DNA of 54,732 nucleotides from Asterias amurensis. Its lineage: Eukaryota. The stretch covers positions 15,816,336 to 15,871,067 of the forward strand of contig NC_092652.1 in NCBI RefSeq assembly GCF_032118995.1, in the 5' to 3' direction. The translations under genes were made by a program, and so were the position numbers. The notes below the pieces were generated by a model. It was not told the DNA's origin. It saw only the letters and a program-made list of their open reading frames with translations, and did not search any database. How positions within the stretch are numbered: position 1 is the stretch's first letter; every line of letters starts with the position of its first letter. This document shows positions 6,081-54,129 of this stretch, piece after piece.

Positions 6081-6473
6081 TTAAAGGCACTGGACACCTT
6101 TGGTAATTGTCAAAGACCAGTCTTCTCACTTGGTGTATCTCAACATATGCATAAAAACCCAACCTGTGAAAATTTGAACTCAGTTGGTCGTCGAAGGTGC
6201 GAGATAATAATGGAAGAAAAAACACCCTTGTCACACAAATTGTGTGCTTTCAGATGCTTGATTTCGAGACCTCAAAATCTAATTCTGAGGTCTCAAAATT
6301 AAAATCTTGAAAAATTACTTCTTTCTCGAAAACTATGTTACTTCAAAGGGAGCCATTTCTCACAATGTTTTATACTATCAACAACTCTCCATTGCTAGTT
6401 ACCAAGTAAGTTTTTATGCCAACAATTATTTTGAGTAATAACCGATAGTGTCACTGCCTTTAAAAGTTGTTAA
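6081..6473 (+). mobile_element. MITE family B (TIR aggcactggacacctttggtaattg), full copy with TTAA TSD
   Basis: gaTTAAaggcactggacacc ... tagtgtcactgccTTTAAaag. Internal hairpin gagacctcaaaatctaattctgaggtctc. Confidence 0.8.
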
Positions 6474-12594: not shown

Positions 12595-12905
12595 AATCTG
12601 AGGTCATTGGTTCAAATCCTGCTGTAGTAAACTTTTCTCTGTTCAATCCCAAATGATTTAAAAGTTGCATCCCCCTTTAAGGTGATCCCCTGGCTGCCTC
12701 TTCCCAGATTGTATTGTAAACTTGGGTGTGACCCCTGGCTCACGGCACTCACAGTTTGAATGTTCTCTGACTGGCACCCTAGAATAAACATATTGACATT
12801 ATAGGGAGACTGCCAAGTTGTTGCTAGCTCAGTTGGTTAGTTAATCCTGAGGTGATCGGTTCAAATCCTGCTTTAGTCAATTTGTCTGTTCAAACCCAAT
12901 AATGT
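12595..12905 (+). mobile_element. Lys-tRNA-like SINE (family 3) as a head-to-tail dimer
   Basis: Two tRNA-like units (..ggttcaaatcctgct..) separated by the conserved ~150-bp module gcatccccc..ggtgatcccctggctgcc..ctgactggcaccc.. Confidence 0.6.
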
Positions 12906-13199: not shown

Positions 13200-13811
13200 G
13201 TAAGTGCTCACTTTCTGGTTTTTCTTCTTCAGTTGCTGTGAACACTGCCCAAATGGTATATTTAATAATGCAGCTCTCAGCGTTAAAAAATTCCTGTATT
13301 GATCGTATTCCCACTGTGTTCTCTGCTGCTCTGTGTATGGGTATAAGTTTGCGTGCAAGATGCAAGACGCATGTAATATCTTGACTGCACAGCGTTAACA
13401 TGCAAACACAATGCACAATATTTGCATCTTGTGTACGCATGGCAGACTGTGAGAATACGATCAAAAACGGGATTTTTTTTTGTGAGGAACATATGACGAC
13501 CAAAACCCACCGCAGAAAAATGTATGCTGCCATGGAATGTGAATCTGTTGAAATTAGTGGCTTCTTGCAGGAAGCTTTGAGTTATGAAGCTTTAAAAAAA
13601 TTTCGCCCCAGAAATGGACCCTGATATCCAGGACGTCACTCTAGTATAATGCGAAAGTGTAAGACCGCCAGGGCTAAGTAATTATCTAAAACTATTAATA
13701 ACTGTTAATACTTAACAGTATTTAACAGGGATGGGCATTGTGAAGTCCGAAATGTTGAAAAAGTTGGACTGCCGCCTGATTCGCCCTGATCATTGTCTTT
13801 CCTTCCTCTAG

Positions 13812-14057
13812 ATTACATCTTCAAGTATTACATCTCATTCCCCGAGAAGCAGCTCCTTGGAAACGACGACAAGACGCTGAAGAACATCTTTCCGAGTGAG
13901 TGCGCAAGACGTTGCGTCACCGAAACAGACTTTACCTGTCGCTCATTTGACTATGAACGCAACAAGATGACATGCTACCTCAGTAAGACCGACAAGAACG
14001 TGGCGGGAGGACTTGTACCATCATTTGAATCGCAGCACTTTGACTACTATGAGAGAG
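13812..14057 (+). CDS. exon encoding a complete PAN/apple-like domain (ECARRCVTETDFTCRSFDYERNKMTCYLSKTDKNVAGG), symmetric phase 1-1
   Basis: Acceptor ttccttcctctag, donor gtaggc at 14058. ORF 13793..14116 has the same frame. C..C...F.C.SF.Y......CYL spacing typical of PAN/apple modules. Confidence 0.8.
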
Positions 14058-14454
14058 GTAGGCAATATAAAAACAGATTGGTTTTAACAAAGGATTGTCT
14101 AAATTCTTCCAAGTGACCTATCACTGATTTTTTGAACAAACATTTTAGTCAAATTCTCTTCTTTTTTTAAAATACTTTTTACTTGATTTTGTTGTCTTTG
14201 TTCAATAATAGTTTACTTATACTACGCACATATCTGTCGATAAAGACACCCAAGCCGCACATAGAAAAAATTAATGGTTCATTTAAACAGAAAACTTGAT
14301 TCTGAAAGAACGCTTATTGAAAGAACGCTTATTGTCTTTAAAAATGGACTTGAAGCACCCAAGGGATGTAGATTAACAAAGATCTTATGTGAGAGTGTTC
14401 CAAACTCGTGGAGCAGCCACACAGAATGACCCAAAATTATTTAAAATTTATCTA

Positions 14455-14745
14455 TCAGTCAGTTTCTCTTGTGGTGTATCATTTAAAATCTGAAATAAAA
14501 ATTAGCATCCCCTTTATATGGTGATTTCCCTGGCTCGTCGCTTCCCTGGTTGTAGCGTAAACTTGGATGTGATTCCTGGCTACACGGTAGTTGGCGGTTA
14601 TATATGGCTTTTGACTGGCACCCCTAAACAAAATAGGGAGGCCGCCAACGTAGGGCTAGATAGCTCAGTTGGTAGAGCGCAGGTACGTTATTCCAGAGGT
14701 TGTTGGTTTAAATCTCGCTCTGGTAATTTTTCTTGTTGTGGGAAT
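14455..14745 (+). mobile_element. SINE family 3 copy; tRNA-like unit at 14653-14728
   Basis: gggctagatagctcagttggtagagcgc..ggtttaaatctcgctctggtaa preceded by the conserved module. Accounts for ORFs 14518..14760 and 14669..14911. Confidence 0.6.
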
Positions 14746-16614: not shown

Positions 16615-16662
16615 ATTGTGCGTACATGTTTTGCGTAAATAGTGCCCGATCGGGCACTAGTC

Positions 16663-16926
16663 TTTAAAAAAACACCCTTGTCACATGAAGTTGCGTGCTT
16701 TCAGATGCTTGATTTCGGGACCTCAAAATCTAATTCTGAGGTCTCAAATTCAAATTCAAATATTTTAGTCAAAAAATTACTTCTTTCTCGAAAACTGCGT
16801 TACTTAAGAGTGAGCCATTTCTCAGCATGTTTTATACTATCAACAGCTCTCCATTGCTTGTTACCAAGTAAGTTTTTATGTTAACAATTATTTTAAGTAA
16901 CTACCATTAGTGTCAAGTGCCTTTAA
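16663..16926 (+). mobile_element. MITE family B copy, 5-prime truncated
   Basis: Internal and 3-prime TIR similarity. Accounts for ORF 16642..16884. Confidence 0.7.
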
Positions 16927-18814: not shown

Positions 18815-19020
18815 AAATTCTGACTGGCACCCCCGAACAAAGATATTAACAAAATAGGGACACCGCCAACATAGGGCTAGATAGCTCAGTTGGTGGAGCG
18901 CTGGCTTGTTAATCCAGAGGTCGTTGGTTCGAATCCCACTCTAGTCAACTCTTTGTTCAACCCCCAAACTCATTTAAAAATTTACCCAGTCAGTTTCCCT
19001 TGTGGTTTATATTGATAACT
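18815..19020 (+). mobile_element. SINE family 3 copy; tRNA-like unit at 18876-18950 (anticodon-loop region cttgttaatcc, Lys-like)
   Basis: gggctagatagctcagttggtggagcgctggcttgttaatccagaggtcgttggttcgaatcccactctagtcaa. The 3-prime acceptor strand mismatches the 5-prime strand, so it is not a functional tRNA. Confidence 0.65.
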
Positions 19021-19170: not shown

Positions 19171-19364
19171 GTAAATATGCACTCCACAACGACTGTTTGA
19201 ATCTCAGTATATAGTCTTGTATTGAATTTATTTCAATTCAATTCAATTCAACTACTCTTTATTAGATAAATAATGATAATAATAAAAAGGGTAGATCAAA
19301 TGCTTGCCTGCTGATAAATCATTAAAACATTAAAACAGCTCTTGGGCTTTATACAATTGAAAGT

Positions 19365-19619
19365 AAAACCGCCACACGTCACTTTCACACGAATTTGTGT
19401 GCTTTCGCAGATGCTTGATTTCGAGACCTCAAAATCTAATACTGAGATCTCAAACTTAAATTCGTGGAAAATTACTTCTTTCTCGAAAACTATGTCACTT
19501 CAAAGGGAGTCATTTCTCACAATGTTGTATACTATCATCCTCTCCTTACTCATTACCAAGTAAGGTTTTATGCTAAAAATTATTTTTGAGTAATTACCAA
19601 TAGTGTCCACTGCCTTTAA
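19365..19619 (+). mobile_element. MITE family B copy, 5-prime truncated
   Basis: Similarity to 6081-6473. Accounts for ORF 19342..19563. Confidence 0.7.
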
Positions 19620-26636: not shown

Positions 26637-27010
26637 TTAAAGACCTTGGACACCTTTGGTAATTGTCAAAGACCCGTCTTCTCACTTGTTGTATCTCAAC
26701 ATGTGCATAAAACAACAAGCCTGTGAAAATTTTAACTCAATTGGTCGTCGAAAGTTGCGAGAGAATAAAGGAAGAAAAAGCACCCTTGTCACACAAGTTG
26801 TGTGCTCTCAGATGCCTGAGGTCTCGAATTCAATTCAAATATTTTAGTGAGAAATTACATTACTTCTTCCTCAAAAACTACCTTAATTCAGAGGGAGCCA
26901 TTTCTCACAATGTTTTATACTACCAACAGCTCTCCATTTGTTCCATACCAAGTAAGTTTTTATGCTAACAATCATTTTGAGTAATTTCCGATAGTGTCCA
27001 GTGCCTTTAA
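26637..27010 (+). mobile_element. MITE family B full copy with TTAA TSD
   Basis: cagTTAAagaccttggacacctttggtaattg ... ccgatagtgtccagtgccTTTAAgag. Confidence 0.8.
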
Positions 27011-29660: not shown

Positions 29661-29927
29661 CCGGTGAATGGAGAGACAACAACTGTGGCGACTGGGCAAA
29701 GTTCATCTGCCAGAAAACCGTCGACGACGTTCCTATGGTAACACATGCACCAACCACACCTCCGACTGGCGAGTGTCCAAACGGCTGGAAAAAGTACAAC
29801 AATCGTTGCTACACCATTGGTGGAAAGAACGAAGGATCCAAGAAGAATTGGCAAGATGCCAGGAAGGAGTGTCAAACCTTGAATGCAGCGGCTAGCCTGG
29901 CATCCATACACGATATCGCTGTGCAGA
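29661..29927 (+). CDS. exon; CTLD-G C-terminus (GEWRDNNCGDWAKFICQK), PT-rich linker, and CTLD-H start (ECPNGWKKYNNRCYTIGG...LASIHDIAVQ)
   Basis: Acceptor attcatacccag, donor caga|gtaagt at 29928. ORF 29645..30100 continues past the donor because the downstream junction copies stay in frame. Confidence 0.85.
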
Positions 29928-30240
29928 GTAAGTATTCCTTTCGAATAACAGTTTCCCTTGTCGCAAGCCTGGTGTCCATACACGATACCTCTTTGCAGAG
30001 TAAGTATTCATTTCGAAAACAGTTTCCGTTGTATACTTTCGCCAGCCTGGATATCGCCGTGCAGAGTAAGTATAGACCAATCCAGGCGCGCATTGCCTAG
30101 CACTTGCGCGCCTGGATTGGTCTATTCCTTTCTAAAATAGTTTCCCTTGTATACTATCGCAAGCCTGGCGTCCATACACGATACCACTGTGCAGAGGATA
30201 GTACATTTAGTCATTTCCAGAACACTTTCCCTTGTTTATA
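29928..30240 (+). repeat. tandem array (3 extra units, 66-75 bp) copied from the exon-end plus splice-donor junction of exon 29661-29927
   Basis: Units repeat ..agcctgg(c/t)(g/a)tccatacacgata.c..tgcagag|taagtat..cagtttcc.ttgt.. Units 1 and 2 keep cagaGTAAGT and are 72 and 66 nt, so they stay in frame. Unit 3 has the GT mutated (gatagt). Confidence 0.85.
30075..30124. repeat. 50-bp perfect palindrome inserted into unit 2 of the junction repeat
   Basis: agaccaatccaggcgcgc attgcctagcactt gcgcgcctggattggtct. Confidence 0.8.
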
Positions 30241-31795: not shown

Positions 31796-31907
31796 AAGGG
31801 AAATCGAACAGACTGTGTCTTGATGATGAATGAGGAAGAGGAACCAGGCCGCTGGAATGATGTGGACTGTATGGCCCTCAACAGCTACCTTTGTGTCATG
31901 AAACCTG
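31796..31907 (+). CDS. exon; CTLD-H C-terminus (KGNRTDCVLMMNEEEEPGRWNDVDCMALNSYLCVMKP)
   Basis: Acceptor gcataattcag, donor cctg|gtaata at 31908. This junction is the founder of the downstream minisatellite. Confidence 0.8.
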
Positions 31908-32530
31908 GTAATACTAACGTACAGTCTCATCATTAGTACTTTAACTTTGTGTCAAGAAACCTGGTAATACTAACATGCAGTCTCACCCTTGGTACTTTAA
32001 CTTTGTGTCAAGAAACCTGGTAATACTAACATGCAGTCTCAACCGTACCTTTGTGTCATGAAACCTGGTAATACCAACATGCAGTCTCATCATTAGTACT
32101 TTACATATGTGTCATGATACCTGGTAATACTGCAGTCCCATCCTTAATACTTTACCTTTGTGTCGTGAAACCTGGTAATACTAACATGCAGTCCCATCCA
32201 TAGTACTTAACCTTTGTATCATGAAACCTAATAATACTAACATGCAGCTCATCATTAGTACTTTACCTTGTGTCATGATACCTAATAATACTAACATGCA
32301 GCTCATCATTAGTACTTTACCTTGTGTCACGATACCTAGTAATACACTGTACTAACATGCAGTCTCACCCTTGGTACTTTACCTTTGTGTCATGAAACCT
32401 GGTAACTAACATGCAGTCTCATTCTAAGTACTTTAACTTTGTCTCATGATACCTGGTGATCACATGTACTAACATGCAGTCTCATCCCTGTAGTACCTTA
32501 CTGTTGTTTCATGAAACCTGGTAATACTAA
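31908..32530 (+). repeat. minisatellite, about 12 units of 49-60 bp, derived from the exon-end plus donor junction of exon 31796-31907
   Basis: Each unit: ..tttgtgtcatgaaacctg GTAATAC TAACatgCAG tctcatcattagtacttta... The last unit (32507-32530) precedes the true acceptor at 32583. Confidence 0.9.
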
Positions 32531-32583
32531 TTTGAAAGAAACAAATATTAGTTTTCTTATGATCAACCATGGTATCATTTCAG

Positions 32584-32828
32584 ATGATAAATACACAAAT
32601 CCAACCACCCCGCCGAAGTGTGACGGCTTGCCTGAGTACGAGAAGTACGGAGATGCCTGCTTCAAGGTTGACATCATTACTAAGAGGACATTTGAGGAAG
32701 CCAAGACGTTCTGCCAGAAGGATGGAGCAAACGTGGCCTCGATCCGCAACGGTTACGAGCAGGCCAAGTTGCAATCCATGGTCATGAAAGCGGATCAAAG
32801 TGTCTGGATTGGCTTGTATGACGACCCG
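32584..32828 (+). CDS. exon; linker plus CTLD-I N-terminal part (DDKYTNPTTPPKCDGLPEYEKYGDACFKVDIITKRTFEEAKTFCQKDGANVASIRNGYEQAKLQSMVMKADQSVWIGLYDDP)
   Basis: Acceptor ggtatcatttcag, donor gtaatt at 32829. ORF 32511..32942. Confidence 0.85.
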
Positions 32829-32948
32829 GTAATTCAATTGAAAACTTATAATTTACAAAACTCTTCTTGCACTTTCAGTGCGTGCATTTTCTTTTGCATT
32901 TTTAACCTAAAATGCCCAGCTCTTTTAGGTTTTATACATTAGTGTTAA

Positions 32949-35866: not shown

Positions 35867-36087
35867 GTAAGATGCAAGAATTGCATTGTTTCACTCTGTT
35901 TGTGAAGCCAAGAATTCTCACAAAATTTATTAGCTCAATTTCTAAACTAGCCAAGTACCTCGTGAAGAGATAAAAAAGTAGAAGATTTCAGGAAAAGCCC
36001 AGATAATTTACTAAAGGGAAGATCTCTGCAATCGGATTGGGACTGATGAAAGCTCAATCAACATAGTGCTCCCAGAAGGATTTGAAC

Positions 36088-36263
36088 CAGCCGTTGATTT
36101 CACAAAACTCTTCCTAACTTAAGACTAATCTTAGGACTTAGGACGAGTCCCAGCCTTGCACTGTAGCATGCAGACCTTAAGATTAATCCTAAGTTAGGAT
36201 GAGTTACTCGCCTATCCTAACTCGAGATAAGACAAGTCCTAACTCTTTGTGAAATTGACCCCT
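36088..36263. mobile_element. MITE family D copy (inside an intronic tandem duplication)
   Basis: cagccgttgatttcacaaaac ... ctttgtgaaattgacccctg. Confidence 0.7.
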
Positions 36264-36450
36264 GATTGTGAAGCCAAGAATTCTCAGAAAATTGAACTCA
36301 ATTGCTAAACTAGCCAAGTACCTCATGAAGAGAAGAAAAAGTAGGAGATTTCAGGAAAAGCCCAGATAATTTACTAAAGGGAAGATCTCTGCAATCGGAT
36401 TTGGACTGATGAAAGCTCAATCAACATAGTGCTCCCAGAAGGATTTGAAC

Positions 36451-36596
36451 CAGCCGTCGATTTCACAAAAATTCTTCCTGACTTTAGATTAATCTTAGGA
36501 CTTAGGACGAGTCCCAACCCTGCACTGTAGCATGCAGACCTTAAGATAAATCCTAAGTTAGACGAGTCCTAAGCTCTTTGTGAAATCGACGGCAGG
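36451..36596. mobile_element. MITE family D copy with an internal deletion (second unit of the tandem duplication)
   Basis: cagccgtcgatttcacaaaa ... ctttgtgaaatcgacggcagg. Confidence 0.7.
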
Positions 36597-38876: not shown

Positions 38877-39125
38877 TCGCATCCCCTTAAGGTGATCACC
38901 TAGCTGCCGCCTCCCAGGTTGTATCGTAATTTGGGTGTGATCCCTGGCTACACGGCAGTTAACGGTTGTATGGCTTCTGACTGGCACCCCCGAACAAAGA
39001 TATTGACAACATAGGGACACCGCCAATATAGGGCTAGATAGCTCAGTTGGTAGAGCGCCGACACGTTAATCCGGATGTCGTTGGTTCGAATCCCACTCTA
39101 GTCAATTCTTTGTTCAACCCCCCCC
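38877..39125 (+). mobile_element. SINE family 3 copy; tRNA-like unit at 39034-39110
   Basis: Conserved upstream module plus gggctagatagctcagttggtagagcgccgacacgttaatccggatgtcgttggttcgaatcccactctagtcaa. Confidence 0.65.
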
Positions 39126-41019: not shown

Positions 41020-41575
41020 TTCAGGGCCAAATTTTATAGTGCTGCTTACTGGACACAATTAGTAATTGTCAAAGACCAGTCTTCTCACTTCGTGTATCTC
41101 AAAATATGCACAGAATAACAGACCTGAAAATTTGAGTACAGTTGGTCGTCGAAGTTGCGAGATAATAATGAAAGAAAAACACCCTTGTCACACGGGGAGT
41201 TGCTTTGATTTTGAGACCTCAAAATCTAATTCTGAGGTCTCGAAATCAAATTCATGGAAAGTTACTTCTTTCTTGAAAACTATGAGGGAGCCGTTTCTCA
41301 CAATGTTTTATACTATGAACAGCTCTCCATTGCTTGTTACAAAGTAAGTTTTTATGCTAACAATTATTTTGATTAATTACCAATACAGTCTTCTGCCTTT
41401 TATGGCAGATTTTGTGCTTACTGTACAATTTCCATTTCATAGCTAACCGTAAGCATATGAAAAGGCGTGCTAACTGTCCTGCGCTTACTGCACGAAAATG
41501 CATGACGACACATGTAAATCCCTAACCTGTAATATGCGCTTCTGCTTAAGCAAATTATTCTGTTGCAGCTAGCAT
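41020..41575. mobile_element. MITE family C copy split by a nested MITE-B insertion
   Basis: gggccaaattttatagtgctgcttac at 41020-41046, rest at 41398-41575. Similar to 30627-30886. Confidence 0.65.
41047..41397 (+). mobile_element. MITE family B copy nested inside a MITE family C copy
   Basis: Interrupts the MITE-C element spanning 41020-41575. Accounts for ORF 41066..41347. Confidence 0.7.
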
Positions 41576-44473: not shown

Positions 44474-44757
44474 ACATGGTGTATACTCGGTACTTTCCCG
44501 AGTTCTGTGAAAAAATTTCACATGCATATTACTCTAGCGGGATTGGATTCCACGACTCTTGCAATTCTAGAGCAGTGTCTTACCAACTAGACTACTTTGC
44601 CTAGTTACTAGAGGCAGTTGGAATCCTATATTTTGGCTGCGGGTACCGGGCAATCTCAGTAGTCTAGTTGGTAAGACACTGCTCTAGAATTGCAAGATTT
44701 GTGGGTTCGAATCCCACCCGAGAAAGTACTGAGAGTATACAGTGCTATGGGTAAAAA
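44474..44757. mobile_element. inverted dimer of SINE family 4 forming a ~120-bp-arm hairpin
   Basis: Arm 44474-44600 is the reverse complement of arm 44660-44757 (..gcaattctagagcagtgtcttaccaactagact..). A-rich tail at 44750-44771. Confidence 0.65.
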
Positions 44758-46275: not shown

Positions 46276-46675
46276 CATTGTACATGTACAAGTGTGCCGT
46301 TATAAGTTATACAAGTTATTTTGTTTGTCTTTTATACTATAGGCCTATTATGTGTGTTTCTCCATACCAAATGATATGAAAAGCAAGCTAAACATGAGAA
46401 TTTTGTTTTGCAGAATAACGGTACATTCAAGTGGATTGATTGTTGGCCATTGATGTTTACTAGTTGGGCTGATTACGAACATTGTACAAGTGTACTGTTA
46501 TAAGTTATACAAGTTATTTTGTTTGTCTTTTATACTATAGGCCTATTATGTGTGTTTCTCCATACCAAATGATATGAAAAGCAAGCTAAACATGAGAATT
46601 TTGTTTTGCAGAATACCGGTACATTTAAGTGGATTGATCGTTGGCCATTGATGTTTACAAGCTGGGCTGATTTCG
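46276..46675 (+). repeat. ~205-bp tandem duplication spanning the intron 3-prime end, the acceptor and the first 67 nt of exon 46612
   Basis: 46276-46480 and 46481-46675 are near-identical. The junction is at ttacgaac|attgtacaag. Confidence 0.85.
46414..46480 (+). pseudogene. duplicated decoy acceptor plus truncated pseudo-exon (NNGTFKWIDCWPLMFTSWADYEH...), copy of the start of exon 46612-46783
   Basis: 205-bp tandem duplication of 46276-46480 and 46481-46675. First copy has no donor and runs into a stop (..VLL*). Confidence 0.6.
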
Positions 46676-46783
46676 AACCAAGTGAAGAAGACGGAGAGGG
46701 TTGCGTAGTACAGACCAACAGTGCTGACTGGGATTCTATCAAATGTACATTGAAACGTGCATTTGTCTGTCATACAACAGAAA
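46612..46783 (+). CDS. exon; CTLD-M C-terminal part with EPS...WDS (NTGTFKWIDRWPLMFTSWADFEPSEEDGEGCVVQTNSADWDSIKCTLKRAFVCHTTE)
   Basis: Acceptor ttttgttttgcag (second copy of a duplicated acceptor), donor gtaagt at 46784. ORF 46606..46851. Confidence 0.8.
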
Positions 46784-53749: not shown

Positions 53750-54129
53750 TGAAAGGCGCTGGACACCTTTGGTAATTTTCAAAGACCGGTCTTCTCACTT
53801 GGTGTATCTTAACATAAGCATACAATAACAAATCTGTGGATATTTCAGCTCAATTGGCTGTCAAAGTTGTGAGATAAGACAAAACACCCTTGTCACAAAA
53901 AGTTGTGTGCTTTCAGATGCTTAATTTCGACACCTCACAATCTAGTTCTGAGATCCCGAAATCAAGTTCGAGGAAAATTACTTCTTTCTCAAAAAACTAC
54001 ATTTCTTCAGAGGGAGCCGTTTCTCACAATGTATTATACTACATGTATCAACAGCTCTCCATTCCTCTATACCAAGGTTTTGCTATTAATTATTTTGAGC
54101 AATTACCAATAGTGTCCAATGCCTTTTAA
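53750..54129 (+). mobile_element. MITE family B full copy. An orphan TIR fragment of the same family lies at 53283-53310
   Basis: aaaggcgctggacacctttggtaatt ... caattaccaatagtgtccaatgccTTTTAAc. Accounts for ORFs 53890..54129 and 53903..54112. Confidence 0.75.

Follow-up and report, generated by a model that had tools for sequence, protein, structure and literature searches.

Minisatellites whose first monomer lies across the boundary between an exon and the following intron form a recognised class, with examples in the human genes F7, IFI6, CBS, LMNB2 and PDGF, in which splicing as a rule takes only the most upstream donor (Borensztajn et al. 2006, PMC1557585). The best-studied case is IVS7 of the human F7 gene, where 37-bp units, the first of them across the exon 7-intron 7 boundary, form a polymorphic minisatellite with 5-9 identical donors. 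The most upstream of these alone is used and the downstream ones remain silent even when they are strengthened; they are nevertheless functional, and become active only once the sites upstream of them have been destroyed (PMC1557585). For the other members the same article describes 25 pseudo-sites in intron 2 of IFI6 (6-16), the first two of which are also used, and 15-20 repeats in intron 13 of CBS, where the first two pseudo-sites are used too. It also lists longer units in LMNB2 (100 bp, 10-15 copies) and in intron 4 of PDGF (81 bp, 16-18 copies), for which use of the authentic donor alone is reported (PMC1557585).

The array analyzed here, in a lectin gene on the plus strand of a stretch of 54,732 nucleotides (hereafter the window), belongs to this already described class, and its arrangement is not new. 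Its units lie head to tail and are within the size range of the class (about 10-100 bp), the end of the exon and the authentic donor are part of the first monomer, and the donor is reiterated in the intron. As in F7, the array begins in the exon, the authentic donor is sub-optimal and is followed by identical pseudo-donors, the copy number is polymorphic (5-9 in F7; 12, 17 and 19 here), and most of the downstream sites disrupt the reading frame. It differs from F7 in the length of its unit (56 bp instead of 37 bp), in the extent of its exonic part (19-31 nt instead of 4 nt), in its more numerous and more diverged copies (about 80-85% similarity), the GT being mutated in some of them, and in its host, a multi-C-type-lectin receptor gene of a marine animal. 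With IFI6 and CBS it has in common a first repeat across the exon-intron boundary followed by many donor copies, whereas here the use of a downstream donor would bring a stop 9-11 codons on. LMNB2 and PDGF resemble it in their longer units and double-digit copy numbers, and the sole use of the authentic donor reported for them is the behavior predicted here, although the genes and taxa are different and there is no sequence relationship.

Host gene and structure of the array

The features needed to follow the analysis are listed below; a slash within a sequence marks the junction between exon and intron or, in proteins, between the products of two exons.

13790-14113: PAN/Apple domain exon (Pfam PAN_1, E = 2.5e-13), set among C-type lectin exons.
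31796-31907, plus strand: last coding exon of a C-type lectin domain (...RWNDVDCMALNSYLCVMKP), with its 3' end in phase 1.
31889-32530, plus strand: minisatellite of 11.5 units of 48-65 bp (TRF, unit split and alignment).
31908-31916, plus strand: authentic 5' splice site ctg/GTAATACTA, weak and lacking the G at +5 (generic donor matrix).
32212-32319, plus strand: units 7 and 8 of the array, a recent duplicate pair, 94% identical (unit split and alignment).
32531-32583, plus strand: unique 3' tail of the intron, with a branch-like TGATCAAC, a pyrimidine-rich stretch and the acceptor tcatttcAG.
32584-32828, plus strand: next coding exon (DDKYTNPTTPPKCDGLPEYEKYGDACFKVD...WIGLYDDP), comprising a linker and the start of the next C-type lectin domain (reading frame).
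32829-32830, plus strand: GT of the predicted donor of that exon, ccg/GTAATT (donor prediction).

The gene is very large and, judged by its repeated Lectin_C matches, is a mannose-receptor-like multi-C-type-lectin gene. Pfam assigns Lectin_C to the spliced product with E = 8.5e-30, and a protein self-search of the window finds about 33 CTLD-coding segments along the plus strand. A PAN domain is encoded as well, and the position of its exon among the lectin exons indicates that the gene product is not purely an array of lectin domains. In a protein search the best named homologues are proteins called 'macrophage mannose receptor 1', with at most 30% identity, from spiders, annelids, crustaceans, vertebrates, sponges and corals.

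The bounds of exon 31796-31907 follow from the reading frame and the AG/GT rule, its junction reading ctg/GTAATACTAAC. The first-pass annotation of this DNA had placed the donor at 31908 and the acceptor at 32583; this predicted model, which has the intron in phase 1 and gives ...LCVMKP/DDKYTNPTT, agrees both with the reading frame and with the position and phase of the corresponding intron in a related locus (L004, see below). The exon starting at 32584 follows tcatttcag and runs on as DDKYTNPTTPPKCD...; an ORF fragment from a metagenome (P0001) is 98% identical to it, and L004 has an equivalent. No spliced protein spanning LCVMKP/DDKYT was found in the protein collection, the matches there being genomic ORF fragments only. 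A separate branch-like TGATCAAC precedes the real acceptor by about 25 nt, and the intron tail that contains it is conserved in the three metagenome contigs L001, L002 and L003. The donor at 32829 is also of the GTAAT type; together with that at 31908 it makes up the only 2 of 33 predicted donors to lack the +5 G in this way.

The array extends over 642 bp with a period of 56, 11.5 copies, 79% matches and a score of 683 (TRF); its unit has the consensus CTTTGTGTCATGAAACCTG/GTAATACTAACATGCAGTCTCATCCTTAGTACTTTAC, with 37.5% GC. Using a fuzzy anchor, 12 copies of the junction are counted in the window, the first of which is the authentic junction of exon 31796-31907, and the donor-equivalent G of these copies stands at 31908, 31964, 32020, 32068, 32124, 32175, 32231, 32285, 32339, 32402, 32456 and 32521. 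A 26-nt core of the junction, CTTTGTGTCATGAAACCTGGTAATAC, has nine matches with up to three mismatches, all of them within the array, for an expectation of 0 (100 shuffles). Unit 1 takes in the last 19 nt of the exon, or up to about 31 nt (from 31877) according to one self-alignment, and this start inside the exon indicates that the array was derived from the donor junction. The earlier claim of a tandem array amplified from a donor junction is thus borne out, by the TRF array and by the exon-end sequence in unit 1.

On the other hand, two details of that description have to be corrected. The units, said to measure 49-60 bp, measure 48-65 bp, and the statement that every unit keeps GTAATAC, TACTAAC and an ATGCAG does not hold, since the array of the window contains them 8, 8 and 9 times, respectively, in each case fewer than once per junction copy. 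The GT is kept in 10 of the 12 junction copies, and the 9-mer ctg/GTAATA is identical in seven, the authentic one included; the two copies that have lost the GT read cta/ATAATA, at 32231 and 32285. These belong to units 7 and 8, which both lack the donor GT (CCTAATAAT), share a 1-nt deletion after CAG and are 94% alike, so that a donor-less unit has itself been propagated. The 48-bp unit 3 was considered as the ancestral unit and rejected, its matching units in L001 and L002 being 55-56 bp long; by comparison of these sequences it more likely carries an 8-nt deletion.

Copy number among alleles and origin of the array

When the two exons were joined and used as a protein query, a single close relative was found, the ORF fragment P0001 from marine metagenome assemblies. 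Both contigs that carry it, L001 of 2.5 kb and L002 of 2.3 kb, cover the whole intron. Their exons differ from those of the window by 1-2 nt (about 99% identity), and the unique flanks of the intron are 94.5-97% identical to the window and 98-99.6% identical between L001 and L002. The anchor counts 19 junction copies in L001 and 17 in L002, against 12 in the window (TRF: 17.5, 15.5 and 11.5 copies, respectively), so that the intron is between 676 and 1085 nt long depending on the allele. A unit-level alignment reveals that the three sequences share their first unit and their last few units, and that relative to the window L002 has five and L001 seven extra units, present as blocks of one or two whole units, L001 and L002 being mainly one two-unit block apart. 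L003, a contig from a third sample, agrees at 99.9% with the L001 array over the 3' half of the latter, a point in favor of the assemblies. A DNA pattern scan and a protein scan of JGI metagenome contigs recovered no further alleles.

These counts and the whole-unit differences identify the array as a copy-number-variable minisatellite (VNTR), the numbers for L001 and L002 being taken from metagenome assemblies, which can mis-count repeat units. The hypervariable VNTR that had been put forward as one option is therefore the one that three independent sequences support. It may be that the window and the L001 and L002 contigs represent sibling species, not individuals of a single one.

The unit with the authentic donor, the first one of the L002 array (positions 963-1016 of that contig), reads GTAATACATATGCAG and has no TACTAAC; the branch-like motif beside the real donor is thus dispensable.

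A comparison with a related locus is provided by L004, a contig of 15.8 kb from another assembly that was reached by a protein search with the previous exon: it is collinear with the region 20.5-39.3 kb of the window over 11 exons in the same order, with 62-88% protein identity, and the introns of the two do not align. The counterpart of exon 31796-31907 has 80% protein identity and the same final codon, and the intron that follows it lies at the same position and in the same phase, is 946 nt long and reads ...TATGTGTCATGAAACCAG/GTGAAA (cag/GTGAAA) ... tttacag/ATGATTC. Neither TRF nor a direct-repeat search detected a tandem repeat in this intron, the neighboring exons of which are conserved. 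An intron at the same position and phase without any repeat indicates that the intron is old and that the array is young and lineage-specific; L004 may, however, be a paralogue that has diverged and not the orthologue.

The same observation disposes of intron gain by tandem genomic duplication, of which Hellsten et al. in 2011 reportedly described an example. The likeness lies in a small tandem duplication that involves splice-site sequence; the difference is that here no intron has been created and a pre-existing one, already present in L004 at the identical position and phase, has merely been lengthened.

We consider it likely that the array is a copy-number-variable intronic minisatellite that arose by duplication of the boundary, that its splice-like motifs are passengers, that the first donor is the one used and that the whole is most likely neutral. 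According to this proposal, some 50-56 bp across the exon-intron boundary, of which 19-31 nt are the end of exon 31796-31907 and 25-37 nt the beginning of an intron that already existed, would have been tandemly duplicated in the lineage of the window. The array would then have grown and shrunk by whole units, presumably because of unequal exchange or slippage. The motifs resembling donor and branch point and the CAG would stem from the first bases of the intron (GTAATACTAACATGCAG) and would have been copied with each unit. Splicing would join the donor at 31908 to the acceptor ending at 32583, the downstream copies being silent, as experiments have demonstrated for human F7; use of one of these copies would add a premature stop, and the transcript would probably be removed by nonsense-mediated decay. 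By analogy with mammalian cells, exclusive use of the first donor is the most likely behavior.

Donor copies and other duplicated exon boundaries

With a score of 0.8 bits, the third lowest value among the 33 predicted donors of the gene, most of which are GTAAGT, the authentic donor is weak; the matrix was built from approximate textbook frequencies, and its scores serve for ranking only. Six copies within the array are identical to the authentic site and two, at 32402 (GTAACT) and 32456 (GTGATC), score slightly above it. The reading frame stays intact with the first donor alone: from the downstream ones a TAG is reached after 9 codons in the window and in L001, and a TAA after 11 codons in L002.

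Given the weak authentic site and its copies, leakage to downstream sites is conceivable, and it forms the basis of an alternative in which these donors are used in a meaningful fraction of transcripts, yielding stop-containing mRNAs that are degraded, so that the length of the array tunes expression. Besides the weakness of the authentic site, this idea draws on the retention of GT in all 19 copies of L001 and all 17 copies of L002, on the use of the first pseudo-sites beside the authentic one described for IFI6 and CBS (PMC1557585), and on the reported association of human intronic VNTR length with splicing changes (PMC5954066, PMC10078293). Nevertheless, we regard it as unlikely. Over the 45 units of the three alleles the donor, TACTAAC and CAG columns are no more conserved than the others (0.92 vs. 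about 0.90, permutation p = 0.30), and the same is true of the units of the window taken alone (0.92 vs. 0.89, permutation p = 0.17). Selection on the splice-like motifs was rejected on these grounds. Moreover, a unit without GT has been propagated, the array is absent from L004 despite its conserved exons, and in F7 the downstream sites are unused (PMC1557585).

The accessibility of the donors, too, is without pattern. Local unpaired probabilities rank the authentic 9-mer between 5 and 14, so that it is not the most open one, and a structural reason for the choice of the first donor was discarded. The consensus unit can fold into a hairpin covering the donor (-7.5 kcal/mol), unit 1 of the window does not form it, and the pattern is inconsistent across the alleles.

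Two further duplications span exon boundaries of the same gene:

29894-30200, plus strand: about four copies of the donor junction AGCCTGGCATCCATACACGATATCGCTGTGCAGA/GTAAGTAT, two exons upstream of the array exon (TRF, sequence and self-BLAST).
46285-46678, plus strand: 198-bp tandem duplication in two copies, 95% identical, across an acceptor junction (TRF, sequence).

The copies of the first one read AGCCTGG...GTGCAGA/GTAAGTAT; three of them have their GT (29928, 30000 and 30066), and one, near 30197, is degenerate, with GG. In L004 the 29928 junction is single-copy. The amplified donor junction previously noted for a preceding exon is thus real, but the two exons are not consecutive, since an ordinary exon conserved in L004 (30469-30614) separates the two amplified donor junctions. 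Each copy of the second one carries ttttgttttgcag/AATA, then A or C, then CGGTACATT..., and the second copy alone continues into the exon; according to the protein self-search the upstream copy is the start of a pseudo-exon ending in a stop.

The third copy within 29894-30200 is interrupted at 30074-30123 by a perfect palindrome with arms of 19 bp (AGACCAATCCAGGCGCGCA ... TGCGCGCCTGGATTGGTCT), and the sequence of these arms occurs nowhere else in the window. The duplication at 35896-36561 was considered as a further boundary case and rejected, being entirely intronic: it is a near-tandem duplication of about 300 bp (35896-36197 and 36262-36561, 92.7% identical, 366-bp offset) that begins 30 nt past a donor.

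The first-pass annotation had seen in the repeated amplification of donor junctions a sign of a locus-specific mechanism or of selection. In the window, 3 of 17 tandem arrays span an exon boundary (the donors at 29928 and 31908 and the acceptor near 46612), and how this figure is judged depends on what is placed at random, in a test that is post hoc and uses an approximate exon map. With founder units, 0.6-0.8 boundary cases are expected and P(3 or more) is 0.02-0.03, a weak hint in favor of the claim; with whole arrays, 1.9-2.2 cases are expected (P = 0.27-0.39) and the figure is unremarkable. The idea that exon boundaries of this lectin gene are duplicated by preference, through selection or a process particular to the locus, has on its side three boundary-spanning duplications in one gene within 54.7 kb together with the founder-unit result. 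We nonetheless hold it to be quite improbable, as most of the tandem arrays lie wholly within introns and survivorship bias alone could give the pattern: purely exonic duplications would be selected against, whereas boundary duplications would be tolerated, the mRNA remaining unchanged thanks to the outermost site.

The window also holds dispersed repeats. The only Rfam matches are three tRNA-like ones, all intronic and on the plus strand (18875-18947, 39032-39104 and 44653-44725). About 200 bp around the tRNA-like matches constitute a dispersed repeat, found by BLAST at 38891-39119, 18819-18962, 14537-14734 and 12681-12883 and in L004 at 14469-14701, which looks like a tRNA-derived SINE family that is also present in the genome from which L004 comes. 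Recurrent intronic ORF-like translations (…KTPLSHKLCAFRCL…SKSNSEVSN…LLSRK…), at 6081-6299, 16639-16881, 19318-19560, 26711-26965, 41066-41344 and 53873-54126, point to another family of dispersed repeats.

Acceptor-like motifs, assembly and meaning of the array

Besides the GT of the copied donor, AG dinucleotides and the branch-like CTAAC are present in a typical unit, and such mimics of donor, branch and acceptor could be thought to allow a stepwise removal of the intron or the inclusion of small pseudo-exons. In every unit the CAG lies 7 nt past the branch-like A, which, by what is established for the choice of 3' splice sites, is too close for the two to act together. More favorable to nested splicing is a second AG, 18-21 nt past the branch-like A and preceded by TCTCATCCTT, in 6 of the 9 CTAAC-bearing units of the window. 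Recursive splicing, on the other hand, would call for a ratchet site, and the absence of AG/GT (AGGT) from the intron in all three alleles, where CAG is followed by TCTC or CTCA, indicates that there is none. In addition, the motifs show no extra conservation, the pseudo-exons of 27-39 nt would each contain a stop, and an intron of 676-1085 nt needs no stepwise removal. Nested or recursive splicing is on balance highly improbable and, of the consequences that had been listed as open, neither this nor splicing decoys or alternative splicing gained support from the tests that were run.

Mis-assembly as the source of the repeat or of its length differences deserves next to no credence: tandem repeats can collapse or expand in short-read assemblies, and L001 and L002 differ mainly by one two-unit block, but four independent assemblies hold the array with the same order of units at both ends, the window has private unit variants (CCTAATAAT) that are not present in the contigs, and units diverged by 15-20% from each other make the array assemblable.

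The array, read as a neutral VNTR with passenger motifs, places a burden on annotation, in that gene predictors and short-read aligners are confronted with 10-19 near-identical donors and with an intron of unstable length. A bolder combination of the above elements, in which the exon boundaries of the gene are unusually duplication-prone (three cases in 55 kb), the 12-19 weak donors are partly used and the length of the VNTR sets the balance between productive and stop-containing mRNA, appears to us very unlikely; if true, expression of an immune-type lectin receptor would be set by a heritable dial that mutates fast. The value of the neutral array is more modest: it provides a natural, non-mammalian test of the rule, established for human F7, that the most upstream donor wins. 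For this it offers a weak authentic site followed by up to 18 copies, alleles that differ in copy number and natural mutants in which the GT is lost or positions +5 and +6 are changed, and, within the same lectin gene, the second duplicated donor junction and the duplicated acceptor junction would serve as internal comparisons.
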